This document shows positions 26,618-32,492 of a stretch of DNA of 33,629 nucleotides, in pieces. The notes under the pieces were generated by a model. The model searched no databases, was not told where the DNA came from, and was given only the letters and a program-made list of their open reading frames with translations. A program made the translations under genes and the position numbers. This DNA comes from Promethearchaeati archaeon (lineage in GTDB: Archaea > Asgardarchaeota > Heimdallarchaeia > Heimdallarchaeales > Heimdallarchaeaceae). The stretch spans positions 1-33,629 of the forward strand of contig JABLTJ010000035.1 in assembly GCA_013166775.1 (NCBI GenBank), in the 5' to 3' direction. Within the stretch, counting starts at the first letter, position 1; the number at the start of each line of letters is the position of its first letter.

Positions 26618-26761
26618 CACTAATTCTATGTCTATTTCTGTTTCTGATATCAGATATTAATTGTTTCTATTGGGTTATTTATATTACTATTCATTATTCA
26701 GAATAAAATACAAATAAAGAGAAAGTAATGAATATTCAAAAATCTCAATTTATGAGAAATT

Positions 26762-26983
26762 TTACTTCTCAAAGTATTGCTCATTTTCTGATTCAAACAA
26801 TTCTTTCAGGTCTTTTCGTTCTTTACGTTCAGAACTTGGGCACCAAGCATTGCAATATGATCCTTGCTGAAGAACATCTTCATAAAAATGATGATTTGAG
26901 AAATATGGAAAATCACATTTCCATTCTTCTCCACATTTTGAGCATTTATGATCACATTCACTCATGGTTTCACTTCCAAACAT
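26762..26983 (-). CDS. Small Cys/His-rich putative zinc-binding protein
   Basis: CDHKCSKCGEEWKC..HH..CNAWCP with a charged C-terminal helix. TTTTTAAATA box upstream; alternative ATG at 26965 with a GGAAGTGA SD-like site. Confidence 0.6.
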   Translation of the reverse strand: MFGSETMSECDHKCSKCGEEWKCDFPYFSNHHFYEDVLQQGSYCNAWCPSSERKERKDLKELFESENEQYFEK

Positions 26984-27023
26984 AACGGTTTGATGAAATA
27001 CTATTTAAAAATAACATTGTAAA

Positions 27024-27119: not shown

Positions 27120-28706
27120 ATGAGATTTATTTTAATCTCTGATACTCATATTGGTGGTCGTTTCGATGAACTGATGTTCAATAAGGGGGTAGATATAGCA
27201 AATTATGTAAAAGGAGATTATCTCATACATTGTGGAGATTTTACAAATGATGGAACATTAGCTCAATATGAGATTGCTAGACTTTATTTGGAAAAGATAA
27301 AAGACAATAAAATCTTTCTTATGGTTCCTGGAAATCATGATGTGAAAAATGTTGGTGATCTATTATGGGAGGAAATTATTGGTGATAGATTTTTTGTTCA
27401 TACTGATGAAAAGAAGAAAGTGAAAATTCTTGCTTTAGATTCCACAGAACCGGATAGTGACACAGGTAGAATGGGACCAAAAGCAATAAGCAGGATTTAT
27501 GAAGAATTTGAATCATTACCAGAACATTGGTTAAAAGTATTAATATTTCATCATCAAACACTCCCAATTCCTTACACAGGAAGAGAAAGGAGTGCAATTT
27601 ATGACGCTGGAAATGCAGTAAAAGCAATCCTTGATTGTAACATACATTTAGTTTTTAATGGTCATAGACACATCAGTAATTTCTATCGAATGTCTGATGG
27701 AGCAATGCAAGCATGGATAGTTAATTGTGGAACACTTTCTTGCAAGAAAACCAGATATAGAGAAGAATATTCAATGACTGTTTTAGATGTAGATAGAGAA
27801 AGAAACGATTTGTCAGTTAGAGTTCTCTTACTCAATAAAGAACCTTTGGAAGAGCAAATAAAATATTCAGGAAAATTTCAAGAGATTATAGTGCCTACGG
27901 AAAAAGAACTCTTAACAACTATAATTCAAATTGGTAACACAGATATTTCTGATCAACGTTTCAACATTGATGCTTTTAAAAAAGGAGTCGAGGTGATAAA
28001 TGAGACTCCTTGCGATTTGGTTGTACATTGTGGAGAAGTAACTGGAAATTCCTACCTCCATGATTTTGAATGGTCAAAAGCACTACTTGGTCAAATTGAG
28101 AAACCAAAACTGATTGTTCCTGGTGATAAAGATACTTATCCATTAGGGTGTCAGCTTTTCCCAGAATACATCGGAGAATTCCAACCGAAATATGAAAATA
28201 AAAAAATAAAGGTTTTAGGATTTAATAGCTGTATAATTGATGAAAGTATTGGAAGACTAGGAAGAGGAAATACAAAAACTATTATTCAAGACCTTACTAA
28301 TTCGAGTAAAATTGGAGTTGTTGCATTCCATCACACAATAATACCTTTACCAAGAACAAAGCACGATGCCGAGCTTACAGATGCTGGAGATGCTTTAGCT
28401 GTTTTAGTAAACAATAGAGTGAATCTAGTTCTTACAGGAGCAAAAAACCAAGCAGGTTGTTGGCAAGTAGATGATACAATCTTTGTTAATGCAGGAACGC
28501 TTAGCAGTTATAACATAACAAAAAAGGAAGGAAATAGTTTCAATATCATAAAGGTGTATAAAACTGATATAGGGAAGTATTATGAGATTGATGAATACTT
28601 GATTAATAGTTTCAAATATCAAACTATTGGCTTGTTTCATGTTTCTGACATTGCTTCGCCAATAGAAATTCCTAAAAGAATAAAATATTTCGACAACAGC
28701 GCATAG
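27120..28706 (+). CDS. Tandem calcineurin-like metallophosphoesterase (Icc/CpdA-like): intact N-terminal domain, degenerate C-terminal domain
   Basis: Domain 1: SDTH, GDFT, PGNHD, FHH, GHRH. Domain 2 equivalents: GNTD, GEVT, PGDKD, FHH, GAKN. Confidence 0.9.
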   Translation: MRFILISDTHIGGRFDELMFNKGVDIANYVKGDYLIHCGDFTNDGTLAQYEIARLYLEKIKDNKIFLMVPGNHDVKNVGDLLWEEIIGDRFFVHTDEKKKVKILALDSTEPDSDTGRMGPKAISRIYEEFESLPEHWLKVLIFHHQTLPIPYTGRERSAIYDAGNAVKAILDCNIHLVFNGHRHISNFYRMSDGAMQAWIVNCGTLSCKKTRYREEYSMTVLDVDRERNDLSVRVLLLNKEPLEEQIKYSGKFQEIIVPTEKELLTTIIQIGNTDISDQRFNIDAFKKGVEVINETPCDLVVHCGEVTGNSYLHDFEWSKALLGQIEKPKLIVPGDKDTYPLGCQLFPEYIGEFQPKYENKKIKVLGFNSCIIDESIGRLGRGNTKTIIQDLTNSSKIGVVAFHHTIIPLPRTKHDAELTDAGDALAVLVNNRVNLVLTGAKNQAGCWQVDDTIFVNAGTLSSYNITKKEGNSFNIIKVYKTDIGKYYEIDEYLINSFKYQTIGLFHVSDIASPIEIPKRIKYFDNSA

Positions 28707-28781: not shown

Positions 28782-30068
28782 GTGAACGAAGAAAGTAGTC
28801 TTCAAAAAAGCAAAAACCATTTTCCAATAAAGATTAAAAATTTGTCTTCAGAACTTGAACCTTGGTTAAAGGAAGCAGAAAAGAGAATTTTTTCTATTGC
28901 AGCAGGAAATAGAATAGCGTTAATTGCTCCAGAGATAATGAAGATAGGTTTCGGGAAAATACTTTATGCAGCAAATGAATTAGGAGCTAATATAGAAAGT
29001 AACAAACCTTTTGTTCTCTTTGCTCCAGATGGTACTTGCACTTATAATAAGCTTAGAATTAAAAGAGGGTTCACTTATGGTTGTTTAATAAAAGCTGAAT
29101 TAGATGGATTAATTGTAACACAAAATGCTATGCCAAACGGATGTGGGTATTCGCTTTTTGAATTCAAAGATCCTCCAAATGATGAAAAGTTGATTAATCA
29201 AGCGAAATTAATTCAAGAGAATATTACTAAAGAACAAGCAATTGAACTAGGAAAGGGTAATCACTTCATTGCTTTATATTACGTTTTAGATAGCGTTTCT
29301 GGTGAGGATACAGGGAAAAGATATGTTCTTCTACATTGTAGCGGTCATGATGTAAAGAAGGAACCTTTGTACAATACTGATTGGTTGGAGAAGGAAGCTG
29401 GTTTCAATAAGATTCTAACACCACATGGTGAGATCTGGTTACTTGAAGACTACGCAAAAGAGCTTTATTTGAAAGAATATGAAATGTTCGAAAACATGAA
29501 CATTAAAGGAAGAAACAATGTGATGAAAGATTTCTTCGAACCAGAATCATTTCAACTTCTAATGGATTTGACTCATCAGGGTTTAGTAGAGAATGGCAAA
29601 TATCTCAAACTTGGAGTTCATTTAAAGGAGGATATAGTTCCAGTTGCATTCAATGCTGATGAAGGTACAATGATTTTGAAAACCAATTCAAACCTAAATA
29701 AGGAGTTCTTAAGGAATTGGGCATATTATAATAACATCAAAGAGTTAGGATATGAACGAGAACTTCAAGGCATTAATATAACTCCTCATGGTTCTGGATA
29801 TGAATTTAAATATCCAATTTCTGGATGTTCATTCAAGTTAGATAAAAATGGATTAAGAGATTTCTCAATAAGTTTAAAACGCCCTTCTGGTAATATCGAG
29901 CAAGTTAATGCAACATATTTTAAAGAGATTAGAAATTTCATGTCATATAGAAGAAAATTACCAATTATGAAGGAAGTTTTTCTAGCCAATTTAGGGGAAC
30001 CAGTATTTGATTTGAAACCATTGATTCAAATACATCCAAAAGTAAGCATTCCAGGTGGGCTTTACTAA
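28782..30068 (+). CDS. Divergent RtcB-fold protein (RNA ligase superfamily)
   Basis: RtcB motifs in the correct order: APD, NGCG, LGKGNHF, LLHCSG, THQ, PHGSG and C-terminal YR..I..V..LG....LKPL. GTG start. Confidence 0.75.
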   Translation: MNEESSLQKSKNHFPIKIKNLSSELEPWLKEAEKRIFSIAAGNRIALIAPEIMKIGFGKILYAANELGANIESNKPFVLFAPDGTCTYNKLRIKRGFTYGCLIKAELDGLIVTQNAMPNGCGYSLFEFKDPPNDEKLINQAKLIQENITKEQAIELGKGNHFIALYYVLDSVSGEDTGKRYVLLHCSGHDVKKEPLYNTDWLEKEAGFNKILTPHGEIWLLEDYAKELYLKEYEMFENMNIKGRNNVMKDFFEPESFQLLMDLTHQGLVENGKYLKLGVHLKEDIVPVAFNADEGTMILKTNSNLNKEFLRNWAYYNNIKELGYERELQGINITPHGSGYEFKYPISGCSFKLDKNGLRDFSISLKRPSGNIEQVNATYFKEIRNFMSYRRKLPIMKEVFLANLGEPVFDLKPLIQIHPKVSIPGGLY

Positions 30069-30093: not shown

Positions 30094-30831
30094 ATGAATA
30101 AAGCTAAACCATGGATTATTGCACACAGAGGTTCATCCGGAGAATTTCCAGAAAACACTCTCGCTGCTTTCTGGGATGCAGTAAAATCTCAAGCTGACAT
30201 TATTGAAATGGATCTTCAATTAACAGCTGATGAACAAGTAGTAGCATTTCATGACACAATAGTAGATAGAATTTTTCAAGAACGAAGTGGGAAGAAAATT
30301 GATGATTTTTCTCTTTTCGAACTAAAGCAGAAAGAGATAGGATCTTGGTTTGATCCAAAATTTGAAGGTCTTAGAATTCCAATTCTAATGGAAGTTTTAG
30401 AAAACCTCCCTCAAGATACTTCACTCATTTTGGAATTAAAAAGCAATAAAGTTAAACTTCTTGAATCTGTTATTCAAACACTTGAAGTTATGAATAAATC
30501 TCTAGGATTAGGATATATTTCTGTAAGGGATATTGAGACATACAAAACGTGCAAGGAAATTTCATCAAAACACAAAATCGGTCTTATGCAGAAAAAAAGA
30601 ACTCCTAAAGAAACTATCGAAGAAGTAGTAAAAAATGAAATTGAAATTGTGCAAATAAGATGGAAAAATTGGAAACCTGATGAGTGGAAAAGGATTGAAG
30701 ATTTGGATGTTATTGTAACCGCATTTAGTGCTGATGAAAGAAGTGATTTCGAATTTTTAGTTGATAAAAAGATAGATGGGATTCATACAAATTATCCAAA
30801 ACGTCTTTATGAATTTCTCAATAAAGAATGA
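30094..30831 (+). CDS. Glycerophosphodiester phosphodiesterase (GDPD, UgpQ/GlpQ family)
   Basis: IIAHRG..PENTLAAF, IEMDLQLTAD, FHD, LELK and DGIHTNYP. Confidence 0.95.
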   Translation: MNKAKPWIIAHRGSSGEFPENTLAAFWDAVKSQADIIEMDLQLTADEQVVAFHDTIVDRIFQERSGKKIDDFSLFELKQKEIGSWFDPKFEGLRIPILMEVLENLPQDTSLILELKSNKVKLLESVIQTLEVMNKSLGLGYISVRDIETYKTCKEISSKHKIGLMQKKRTPKETIEEVVKNEIEIVQIRWKNWKPDEWKRIEDLDVIVTAFSADERSDFEFLVDKKIDGIHTNYPKRLYEFLNKE

Positions 30832-30842
30832 GAGAGAAAGAT

Positions 30843-32492
30843 TTACAATTTCTCCTTAATTCTATCTCTGATAACATTCTTTTCTAACAGAGTTGCTATT
30901 TCTAGAGCTCCGTTCAGTACTTCTCTTCCTCTATCATTGAGTAAAGGTAAAATAAAATTACCAAAGTTCTCTAGTACTCTTAGAAGATCTACTGAATCTT
31001 CAAGACTCTCATAGATAGAGATAGCAGATTCATAATGAACAATTGCTTTTTCTGTATTCTTCTCACGTTCAACAATTGCTAAGATTTCTTTTGACAAAGC
31101 TTCATACAAAGGATTATCTTTTTTCTTGGCTAAATCGATCGTTTCTTCAGCATATTGTTTTGCTTGTTTAAGATTTTTAGTTGACATTCCTAAAGCTATC
31201 TGATAATTTATATATAATATATAATCAGAAATTTGATTGGTACGATCTCCCACAAGCTGTTCAATAATTTTAGTAATTTTCTTGTTTATTTTCTCTATTC
31301 TTTTCCCATCTTTGAGTTGTATAGCAAGAATTTGTGCTCCAAGATAATTGTAAAATGCATTTGCATTGCTATTATTCTTTACAAATAGATCTCCAATTTC
31401 CTCATACATTGATGTTTCGTTATTTATCTCATCATCAGATAATTTAGCGATATTAGAAGCAGTAAATAAACCCTTGATTGTATCAGAATATTCTCCCTCA
31501 ATGGGTTCTTGTATAAATTTAATGTTCTTCAATCCTTTAATTATATCAAAAGAGCTTCTTTCTGAAAGAAGTTGATAGATTTTTCTTACATTATCTGAAT
31601 CAATAACAGGTTCAAGTGGAGGAAGGTCCAGACGTGATTTCAAAGAATGACCTGAATATAGAAGTTGTCTAGCAATGTTTAGATACTTTGGTAACTCTAA
31701 ACCTTCTAATATTTCAGGATAATCACTAAGTACTACTCTAGCGTTTTCCAAGAATTCGTGTGCTTGAATATAATTTCTAGTTTTCAGATAAAGATTACCT
31801 ATTCTGAAATCGATATTCCCTACCCAGTGCCAATCGTTGATTGATTTGAAATAGTCTTTACCTTCATTATAGAGGTTGATAGCTTGTTTTATATCGCCAA
31901 GTGAAAGACAATCTGCAAAATAAACAGTATTTTTTGCATAAGCTTCCTGAGTACCAATCTCTTCTGCTAATTTAATAGCTTGTCCAAAAACCACTGAAGC
32001 ATCCTTGAAATCAAAATTCATCAAGTTTATTCCAAAAGGTGTTAGATACTCTAAATGTAACTCTTTATTTTCTGATTTCCTAGCCTCACTTACAGCCATA
32101 AGAAAATACTCAGTAGCTTCCTTGTAATCTGCTTGGGAACTAAAAAGTGAAGCAATATAATATGCAATTTTTGCAGTTAATTCTCTAGCTTCAAGAATTC
32201 TACTAGCATCGAGTATTTCTGCAATTTGCCTAATAGCAATTTCAGGATCAGCATCTTCGAGTTCCTTCTTTTTAGCTTCAAATCTTTCTTCCAACTTTGC
32301 TATCTCATCTTCAAGCTTATCCCCATAAGTGATTATAACATCTTTATCAGAAAAACCTACTACTTCTTCTTCTGGGATTTCTTCTAATCCTGCGAGATCA
32401 CTGTACTCTTCAATATCAAAAGAAATAGTCTCAAGATCATCAAGATCTTCATATTCTTCTTCAAGGTCTTCCAATTCTTTTTCTTCACTCAT
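30843..32492 (-). CDS. TPR-repeat protein with strongly acidic N-terminus
   Basis: About 50-aa D/E-rich N-terminus, a coiled segment and two TPR blocks (e.g. IGNLYLKTRNYIQAHEFLENA; EKAIVHYESAISIYESL). Confidence 0.8.
   Translation of the reverse strand: MSEEKELEDLEEEYEDLDDLETISFDIEEYSDLAGLEEIPEEEVVGFSDKDVIITYGDKLEDEIAKLEERFEAKKKELEDADPEIAIRQIAEILDASRILEARELTAKIAYYIASLFSSQADYKEATEYFLMAVSEARKSENKELHLEYLTPFGINLMNFDFKDASVVFGQAIKLAEEIGTQEAYAKNTVYFADCLSLGDIKQAINLYNEGKDYFKSINDWHWVGNIDFRIGNLYLKTRNYIQAHEFLENARVVLSDYPEILEGLELPKYLNIARQLLYSGHSLKSRLDLPPLEPVIDSDNVRKIYQLLSERSSFDIIKGLKNIKFIQEPIEGEYSDTIKGLFTASNIAKLSDDEINNETSMYEEIGDLFVKNNSNANAFYNYLGAQILAIQLKDGKRIEKINKKITKIIEQLVGDRTNQISDYILYINYQIALGMSTKNLKQAKQYAEETIDLAKKKDNPLYEALSKEILAIVEREKNTEKAIVHYESAISIYESLEDSVDLLRVLENFGNFILPLLNDRGREVLNGALEIATLLEKNVIRDRIKEKL

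Follow-up and report, generated by a model that had tools for sequence, protein, structure and literature searches.

A distant RtcB-like protein of a Heimdallarchaeial genome, with a conserved predicted catalytic core and phosphodiesterase gene partners

A Heimdallarchaeial genome encodes a genuine but very distant relative of the RNA ligase RtcB that retains the putative catalytic metal site and reactive histidine, has lost the residues that recognize GTP and RNA, and is found together with genes for two phosphodiester-cleaving enzymes. From this combination it is inferred, tentatively, that the protein re-joins or activates a phosphate ester other than tRNA ends. The gene lies in a window of 33,629 nucleotides, the whole stretch of DNA analyzed (Promethearchaeati archaeon, GCA_013166775.1, contig JABLTJ010000035.1, positions 1 to 33,629). 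The observation made in the sequence-only reading, that of an RtcB-fold protein with a rewired active site in an intact 428-aa frame, holds. The features of the locus are as follows, with PhoRtcB denoting the Pyrococcus horikoshii enzyme.

27120..28706 (+), tandem calcineurin-like metallophosphoesterase (528 aa); domain 1 has intact DxH/GD/GNHD/HH/GHxH motifs, whereas domain 2 has degenerate motifs but is highly conserved
28782..30068 (+), RtcB-like gene (428 aa), a predicted short RtcB fold lacking most of the ~70-residue helical insertion
29028..29030 (+), D83 (APD), equivalent of PhoRtcB D65
29133..29147 (+), P118-N119-G120-C121-G122; C121 is the proposed bridging metal ligand (PhoRtcB C98) and P118 stands where D95 would be
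29256..29273 (+), G159-N160-H161-F162-I163-A164; N160/H161 correspond to N202/H203 and A164 replaces the guanine contact E206
29334..29345 (+), H185-C186-S187-G188; H185 corresponds to the M1 ligand H234 and the GSRG arginine (R238) is missing
29571..29579 (+), T264-H265-Q266; H265 corresponds to the M1 ligand H329 and Q266 replaces N330
29787..29804 (+), H336-G337-S338-G339-Y340-E341; H336 corresponds to the nucleotidylated H404 and Y340 replaces R408
30027..30068 (+), C-terminus Q416-I417-H418 plus a 10-residue tail; H418 stands where the C-terminal Lys (PhoRtcB K480, guanine O6 contact) would be
30094..30831 (+), GDPD-family glycerophosphodiester phosphodiesterase (245 aa, no signal peptide, HRG..PENT / ExD / FHD motifs), 25 bp downstream of the RtcB-like gene

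The RtcB-like gene is an open frame with a GTG start, the opposite strand is full of stops, and a homolog of 83% identity has the same 428-aa length, which supports the start. Every motif listed in the sequence-only reading is present, and the absences it listed are also borne out: there is no HxGSRG arginine and no HRKGA, and the C-terminus reads ...QIHPKVSIPGGLY rather than KG. Sequence-only searches gave nothing useful, with no Pfam family at E<=10 (and hence no match to the RtcB profile PF01139), only chance-level hits in NCBIfam, and no RtcB among PDB sequences by phmmer or profile search. A scan of ten weaker superfamily members likewise found no bridging PF01139 hit. The predicted structure, however, matches only RtcB. 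The AF2 model is of high confidence (pLDDT 90.8), the top 16 Foldseek hits in the PDB are all RtcB (E 3e-7), and VIA-align gives Z 21.2 with an rmsd of 3.5 A over 312 residues to 4dwq_A, with ten RtcB entries at Z 19-21 and the best non-RtcB chain at Z 5.7.

Profile-profile alignment (hhalign) against canonical Asgard RtcBs pairs N160/H161, A164, H185, H265/Q266 and H336..Y340 with PhoRtcB N202/H203, E206, H234, H329/N330 and H404..R408, and an alignment of the N-terminal halves pairs D83 with D65. Support is modest, with probabilities of 64% and, in a second run that again pairs the H336 loop with H404-G-A-G and places H418 at K480, 83%. The register of PNGCG against DINCG is not settled by profile alignment, as short windows around the Cys motif gave three different low-confidence registers. 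The equivalence of C121 and C98 rests instead on spacing and on matching secondary structure in the AF2 models of this protein and of a canonical RtcB, in both of which the Cys immediately precedes a strand followed by a long helix. The replacement of D95 by Pro consequently depends on an ungapped register. P118 occupies the position three residues before the Cys in 64 of 66 close homologs, and the adjacent conserved N119 (162 of 175 relatives, with Asp in 4 more) may be the real M2 ligand.

The retained residues are the most conserved positions of the family. Among 175 superfamily members, H161, H185 and H265 are present in 175, N160 in 173, C121 in 170 and D83 in 165, while H336 is His in 165 of the 165 sequences that cover the position. 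The putative catalytic residues are invariant in the 66 close homologs, and the same residues are the only invariant or near-invariant ones in an alignment of sequences 19-45% identical to this protein. With ligand roles taken from PMC9745838 and PMC10630183, the M1 site (C121, H185, H265) would be complete and two of the three M2 ligands (C121, H161) and the phosphate/nucleophile-contacting Asn (N160) retained, as judged from alignment and topology rather than from measured geometry. This pattern argues against a catalytically dead scaffold or regulator that merely keeps the fold, as a dead enzyme would not be expected to keep exactly these residues. Such a reading is very unlikely, although D95, E206, R238, R408 and K480 are all missing and the neighboring esterase also carries a degenerate domain.

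The guanine-specific contacts Glu206 and Lys480 (PMC9745838) have no counterpart. Position 164 is never acidic in the 66 close homologs, and position 418 is Tyr or His, never Lys or Arg, in the 62 of 66 that cover it (4 gaps), whereas Lys or Arg stands there in 53 wider relatives. These 66 proteins form a Heimdallarchaeial clade (support 1.0) on a long branch. On a midpoint-rooted tree its successive sister clades read D/E and K at the two positions, and 26 of the 109 wider relatives, including the nearest sister clades, keep both, so that the loss looks derived in this clade. By contrast, N330 to Gln (Q266 in 66 of 66 close homologs) and R408 to Tyr are traits of the whole older superfamily and not of this protein alone. 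The 5'-OH strand contacts Arg238, Arg190 and Gln194 (PMC8051266) also lack counterparts, within the same modest alignment confidence. R238 falls in an alignment gap (HCS----GH), and the region carrying R190 and Q194, helical at 135-205 of the canonical model, is reduced to one helix.

The protein is a second, accessory paralog. A canonical rtcB (PF01139, 536 bits), the only gene found by that profile in this genome, lies on another contig with archease divergently adjacent; this archease (PF01951, 110.8 bits) is the only one in the genome and is not in the window. A canonical RtcB is likewise present in 40 of 41 relatives. A fold unlike RtcB, or a gene that was the genome's only RtcB and an ordinary ligase, had been set beforehand as counting against the sequence-only reading, and neither outcome was found.

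The conserved partner genes encode phosphodiesterases rather than RNA-repair proteins. The GDPD gene (Pfam GDPD, 1e-27) sits directly beside the RtcB-like gene in 14 of 18 loci, or 15 counting one with a 296-aa gene between. The metallophosphoesterase, which matches Pfam Metallophos in two stretches and shows an internal repeat by tblastn, is nearby in four different arrangements. Across 47 genomes of the order, 24 have both the RtcB-like gene and the orthologous esterase, 21 have neither and 2 have one; within the genus of this genome, 7 of 8 carriers have both and all 17 non-carriers lack both. These genomes are kin and not independent. A structural match, without sequence support, points to 936-aa proteins that combine Metallophos with this fold, but word-based searches among longer proteins with the superfamily alignment and with the esterase found no fused forms, which is weak evidence. 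A predicted complex of the RtcB-like protein with the GDPD scored 0.00 in a run without controls, which is not evidence either way. As candidates for a conserved fourth partner, the 85-aa ORF at 26728-26985 and a 92-aa ORF in the locus labelled L002 show no similarity.

The interpretation offered in the sequence-only reading, retention of function with a different nucleotide or acceptor rather than decay, is supported: the absence of decay by the conservation described above, and the change of nucleotide or acceptor as an inference that is now better grounded. What the analysis establishes is an intact member of a short (~400-430 aa) branch of the predicted RtcB fold not filed in Pfam, its retained and lost residues as aligned here, its status as a second paralog beside a canonical rtcB-archease pair, and its genetic linkage to a cytoplasmic GDPD, which has no signal peptide, and a tandem metallophosphoesterase. 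Everything concerning activity is inferred, and only tentatively, including nucleotidylation and any joining of RNA ends. In this model the protein would be a divalent-metal-dependent nucleotidyltransferase or ligase in which H336 takes an NMP from an NTP that is not read as guanine in the manner of RtcB. The NMP would pass to a phosphomonoester (or opened cyclic phosphate) to form an NMP-P-R anhydride, after which a hydroxyl would displace NMP to make a new phosphodiester, or the capped product would be released. The phosphoester would most likely be supplied by the partner phosphodiesterases, in a cut-and-rejoin or salvage module for a glycerol-phosphate-type or other non-tRNA phosphodiester. 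Loss of the M2 Asp could, however, impair NTP use, such that the enzyme might not nucleotidylate at all. A bolder form of this model, in which an NTP other than GTP is used to activate or re-join a small or polymeric glycerol-phosphate-type phosphoester released by the two partners, is not excluded but is unlikely on present evidence. If true, it would represent the first RtcB-fold enzyme working outside RNA/DNA and a new route to phosphodiester or NDP-alcohol formation in the archaeal lineage closest to eukaryotes.

It remains possible, though less likely than the tentative model above, that the protein still joins or caps nucleic-acid ends within an RNA/DNA "heal-and-seal" cassette, in which the metallophosphoesterase would trim 2',3'-cyclic or 3'-phosphate ends and the RtcB-like protein would seal or cap them on a specialized RNA target distinct from tRNA exons. 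The fold and the nucleophile/M1 core are retained, every characterized RtcB, paralogs included, acts on nucleic-acid ends, and several conserved basic residues (K59, R92, R95, R244, R390) could bind a polyanion such as RNA. The esterase has weak hits to cyclic-nucleotide phosphodiesterases, including a 2',3'-cNMP enzyme, and a calcineurin-type esterase is also the end-healing module of bacterial Pnkp, so that the gene context is not exclusively of a small-molecule kind. On the other hand, the strand contacts and most of the insertion are missing, the tightest partner is a GDPD, a fold with no known RNA role, and no RtcA, archease, Hen1, kinase or PrfH lies nearby.

A third possibility, less likely still, is a metal-dependent hydrolase or phosphotransferase that no longer uses a nucleotide, for example a cyclic-phosphate (glycerol 1,2-cyclic phosphate or 2',3'-cNMP) phosphodiesterase completing a phosphate-scavenging pathway with the GDPD and the metallophosphoesterase, with H336 as a general base or phospho-histidine. 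Loss of the M2 Asp and of both guanine contacts would fit this view, as would two partners that are phosphodiester hydrolases and a sub-clade that lies next to a PstS-type phosphate ABC transporter. Canonical RtcB has an intrinsic cyclic phosphodiesterase step, but that step is itself GTP-dependent. In addition, H336 and N160, which in RtcB serve nucleotidylation and leaving-group contact, are strictly conserved, and the guanine-contact equivalents kept by the nearest sister clades suggest ancestral NTP use.

Compared with canonical RtcB 3'-phosphate/5'-OH RNA ligases (P. horikoshii PH1602 in 1uc2/4dwq, Thermus TTHA1785, human RTCB), the protein shares the predicted fold and the order of motifs but is only 13-17% identical and about 60-70 residues shorter. 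RtcB is the only known ligase family that joins 3'-phosphate to 5'-OH ends, and every characterized member works on nucleic acids with GTP; this conserved, selectively maintained branch, inherited as a unit with two phosphodiesterases, therefore offers a testable case for recruitment of such chemistry to another nucleotide or another class of substrate. Specialized paralogs provide precedent for a second RtcB-type gene whose role is set by its operon partner, as with E. coli RtcB2, which acts with PrfH in repair of 16S rRNA (PMC9304027). RtcB3 of Myxococcus xanthus, a paralog named in PMC10630183, is reported to cap 5'-phosphates, a precedent for RtcB chemistry that ends at a capped phosphate. 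Those paralogs are ordinary PF01139 members acting on RNA or DNA, whereas the present protein is outside PF01139 and its partners are small-molecule-type phosphodiesterases.

The wider short-RtcB superfamily comprises about 188 cluster representatives from Altiarchaeales, Methanonatronarchaeia, other Asgard lineages and some bacteria, with the same length class and the same PNxCG / GNHF / H / HQ / PHGGGY / YR motifs, and includes a structural match in the Atlas at TM 0.79. The family is invisible to Pfam, is mostly annotated as hypothetical, as the sequence-only reading had anticipated for this gene, and is widespread in Asgard archaea, where 111 of 251 sampled genomes match the profile; no paper describing it was found in the literature library searched. 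Neighbors of the distant relatives are heterogeneous, with family hits below curated cut-offs, and include other small-molecule genes, namely a CbiR/EndoIV-like AP_endonuc_2 phosphodiesterase-fold gene next to an Altiarchaeal relative and an APH-kinase fusion inside a radical-SAM/aminotransferase/SDR/HAD cluster, as well as gamma-glutamyltranspeptidase and ATP-grasp. No RtcA, archease, Pnkp or PrfH was seen next to them. The proposed chemistry parallels, in mechanism only, cobamide nucleotide-loop assembly, in which CobU/CobY activates cobinamide phosphate as a GMP-anhydride, a hydroxyl attacks to give a phosphodiester through CobS, and the phosphodiesterase CbiR allows remodeling. The folds are unrelated, and there is no evidence that cobamides are the substrate here.

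A role in anti-phage defense was also considered. Neither PADLOC nor PHROGs gave a hit for the RtcB-like protein, PADLOC gave none for the GDPD, and the esterase received only a generic Metallophos-domain hit (PDC-S10, 48 bits). Among sequencing runs, no RNA run and only three DNA runs, all from one marine-sediment study, are listed as containing the stretch.

The predicted RtcB-like gene at 28782-30068(+) is an intact ORF of 428 aa with a GTG start, and the reverse strand is closed by stops. The sequence-only reading had listed a series of RtcB motifs in this frame, and that observation holds: APD83, PNGC121G, GN160H161FIA164, H185CSG, TH265Q266 and H336GSGY340 are all present and occur in this order. 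The protein ends in ...QIHPKVSIPGGLY, and there is no HxGSRG arginine, HRKGA motif or terminal KG. Sequence methods alone do not recognize the protein. A Pfam search returned no hit at E<=10, NCBIfam gave only chance-level hits, and searches of the PDB by sequence or by family profile found no RtcB.

An alignment of 42 homologs was used to produce an AF2 model with a mean pLDDT of 90.8 and a pTM of 0.90. The 16 best PDB hits obtained with Foldseek are all RtcB, with E from 3e-7. Comparison by VIA-align gives Z 21.2, with an rmsd of 3.5 A over 312 aligned residues, to P. horikoshii RtcB-GMP/Mn (4dwq_A). Ten RtcB entries score Z 19-21, whereas the best unrelated chain scores 5.7. The RtcB fold is therefore established for the model.

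Residue equivalences were assigned by first mapping the genome's own canonical RtcB onto P. horikoshii RtcB (PhoRtcB) numbering, and then aligning the family profile with that of 16 canonical Asgard RtcBs using hhalign. The first alignment has a probability of 64% and E 6.6e-5, and the third has a probability of 83%. R238 of PhoRtcB falls in a gap of the first alignment.

Residues of the RtcB-like protein paired with PhoRtcB residues by hhalign.
N160/H161: N202/H203 (first alignment)
A164: E206 (first alignment)
H185: H234 (first alignment)
H265/Q266: H329/N330 (first alignment)
H336..Y340: H404..R408 (first alignment)
D83: D65 (second alignment)
Y389: Y451 (third alignment)
H418: K480 (third alignment)

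The register of PNGCG is not fixed by profile alignment, and the canonical RtcB was therefore folded as well. In both models the Cys directly precedes a beta-strand that is followed by a long helix, and the order D-strand, G-rich strand, Cys-strand, helix, NH-strand and H-strand is the same in both. The canonical helical region (about residues 135-205) shrinks to one helix in the RtcB-like protein. This comparison supports the equivalence of C121 with C98, and puts P118 at the D95 position with the invariant N119 beside it. Roles for the PhoRtcB residues are taken from the literature.

Reported roles of PhoRtcB residues.
H234, H329, C98: M1 metal site (PMC9745838; PMC10630183)
C98, D95, H203: M2 metal site (PMC9745838; PMC10630183)
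K480, E206: read the guanine base (PMC9745838; PMC10630183)
N202, N330: contact the GTP phosphates (PMC9745838; PMC10630183)
N202: contacts the 5'-OH (PMC8051266)
R238, R190, Q194: hold the 5'-OH strand (PMC8051266)

Close homologs comprise 68 proteins of about 430 aa at 37-83% identity. Those that carry a source name (19 of the 68) are labelled Heimdallarchaeia-type MAGs (Heimdall, Kari, Hod), apart from one labelled Thorarchaeota. Most are named hypothetical, and one is named 'RtcB family protein'. A profile search of 1.84 billion representatives found 188 clusters at E<=1e-3, including ~400-aa proteins from Altiarchaeales and Methanonatronarchaeia and one APH-kinase fusion. In a 48-sequence alignment at 19-45% identity to the RtcB-like protein, the only invariant residues are H161, H185, T213, H265 and H336, while D83, C121, G122, N160, F162, G337 and G339 are nearly invariant. 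Over a census of 175 proteins, H161, H185 and H265 are present in 100%, H336 in 165/165, C121 in 170/175 and N160 in 173/175. Two orthologs of the gene (G005:C36:56625-57896 and G029:C80:29046-30275, in two related genomes) are reported with one in-frame stop, TGA and TAG respectively, and several esterase orthologs also carry a single TAA or TAG; these may be sequencing errors, pseudogenes or match-edge effects.

The 66 close homologs in the census never carry an acidic residue at position 164 or K/R at position 418. Among 109 wider relatives, 38 are acidic at 164, 53 have K/R at 418, and 26 keep both. A FastTree analysis of 165 sequences recovers the close clade as monophyletic (support 1.0) on a long branch, and under midpoint rooting the successive sister groups read N-D/E-Q-Y-K at the five key positions. 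Loss of both guanine-contact equivalents therefore appears, on this rooting, to be a derived trait of the clade. In contrast, Q for N330 and Y for R408 are old traits of the whole superfamily.

The divergent gene is accessory, as the genome also has a canonical rtcB on another contig (C27; 494-aa ORF, PF01139, 536 bits), with an archease gene (PF01951, 110.8 bits) divergently upstream, the pair lying at C27:35169-37176. The standard tRNA-splicing ligase pair is thus complete elsewhere in the genome, and 40 of 41 relatives have a canonical RtcB. The divergent gene occurs in 7 of 24 other genomes of the genus and in 25 of 47 genomes of the order. At looser thresholds the superfamily profile matches 111 of 251 Asgard genomes.

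Within the window the gene is flanked on the same strand by two genes for predicted phosphodiesterases, and a further gene lies convergently downstream.
27120-28706 (+): 528-aa tandem metallophosphoesterase, separated from the RtcB-like gene by a 75-bp gap
28782-30068 (+): RtcB-like gene
30094-30831 (+): 245-aa GDPD, separated from the RtcB-like gene by a 25-bp gap
30843-32492 (-): 549-aa TPR protein with weak SNAP- and MIT-like hits

The esterase is an internal duplication in which residues ~1-224 resemble ~268-480 at about 30% identity. Domain 1 has all calcineurin-type motifs, and domain 2 has degenerate ones but is highly conserved. The GDPD has its catalytic motifs and no signal peptide. 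The TPR protein keeps its position downstream of the GDPD in three other genomes of the genus (loci L042, L044 and L055). The GDPD lies directly next to the RtcB-like gene in 14 of 18 wider loci, and in a fifteenth (L074) a 296-aa gene lies between them. In one locus (L002) the RtcB-like and GDPD ORFs overlap by four bases. The esterase is nearby in several different arrangements: esterase-RtcB-like-GDPD, RtcB-like-GDPD-esterase, convergent, divergent, and one with a gene between the esterase and the pair. Of the 47 genomes of the order, 24 have both the RtcB-like gene and the orthologous esterase (above about 400 bits), 21 have neither, one has only the esterase, and one fragmentary genome has only the RtcB-like gene. 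These genomes are related and the counts are not independent events, but even so the module behaves as a unit. A second tandem esterase paralog (about 320 bits; contig C6:28678-30168 in this genome) is present in almost every genome of the order and does not track the module.

Loci without the partners lie next to a Mn/Zn-type ABC permease and an AMP-phosphorylase-like gene, a Fur regulator, or a PstS-type ABC transporter. In one of these (L076, G134:C3:164000-177000 in a related genome; also L041), a close paralog without the GDPD or esterase lies between the ABC-3 (Mn/Zn-type) permease gene and the AMP-phosphorylase-like gene (Glycos_transf_3 + PYNP_C). Distant relatives lie beside an AP_endonuc_2 gene with weak CbiR/EndoIV-like hits, an ATP-grasp gene with a deacylase, or a gamma-glutamyltranspeptidase. 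One distant relative (P0094, a 743-aa protein from an ENA contig) is fused to an N-terminal APH/choline-kinase-type phosphotransferase and sits in a cluster with two radical-SAM enzymes, an aminotransferase, an SDR and HAD hydrolases, a small-molecule biosynthetic setting. No RNA-repair gene was seen in any of these neighborhoods. A search of the ESM Atlas found a cluster of 936-aa Metallophos proteins that contain this fold (TM 0.67 over 364 residues), a lead to a fusion that sequence searches did not confirm.

The fold of the model, the conserved equivalents of the M1 ligands, nucleophile and N202, the absence of counterparts to the guanine readers and strand binders, and the shared inheritance with two predicted phosphodiesterases are results of the analysis, whereas catalysis, nucleotide use and substrate are inferred. 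This pattern, together with strong purifying selection, argues for an active enzyme that still forms a covalent His-NMP (or related) intermediate. The enzyme appears to have changed both its nucleotide recognition and its acceptor or donor, and the interpretation offered from sequence alone, a different nucleotide or acceptor rather than decay, is thus supported, although as an inference. In the most economical pathway the partner phosphodiesterases would cut a phosphodiester, leaving a phosphomonoester or cyclic phosphate; the RtcB-like enzyme would re-activate that phosphate with NMP, and would then join the activated phosphate to a new hydroxyl or release the capped product. This composite reading is tentative, falling somewhat short of even likelihood, and a non-nucleic-acid substrate is possible but less likely than not. 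A specialized RNA/DNA heal-and-seal ligase is a less likely but possible alternative, a nucleotide-independent cyclic-phosphate hydrolase acting in phosphate scavenging is unlikely, and a dead scaffold is very unlikely. The protein does not match the PF01139 profile and fails several residue-level criteria for membership in RtcB, yet it has the predicted fold and the catalytic core; no description of it was found in the literature searched.

In four related genomes (G027:C130, G029:C95, G007:C91 and G020:C68) the canonical rtcB frames are about 1000 aa and the PF01139 match is split (positions 1-50 and 45-426, roughly 1.5 kb apart), which looks like an intein inserted in rtcB. A third kind of RtcB is found in one relative (G032:C326:1792-2982), where a 428-aa frame matches PF01139 at only 208 bits, intermediate between the canonical gene and the family studied here.
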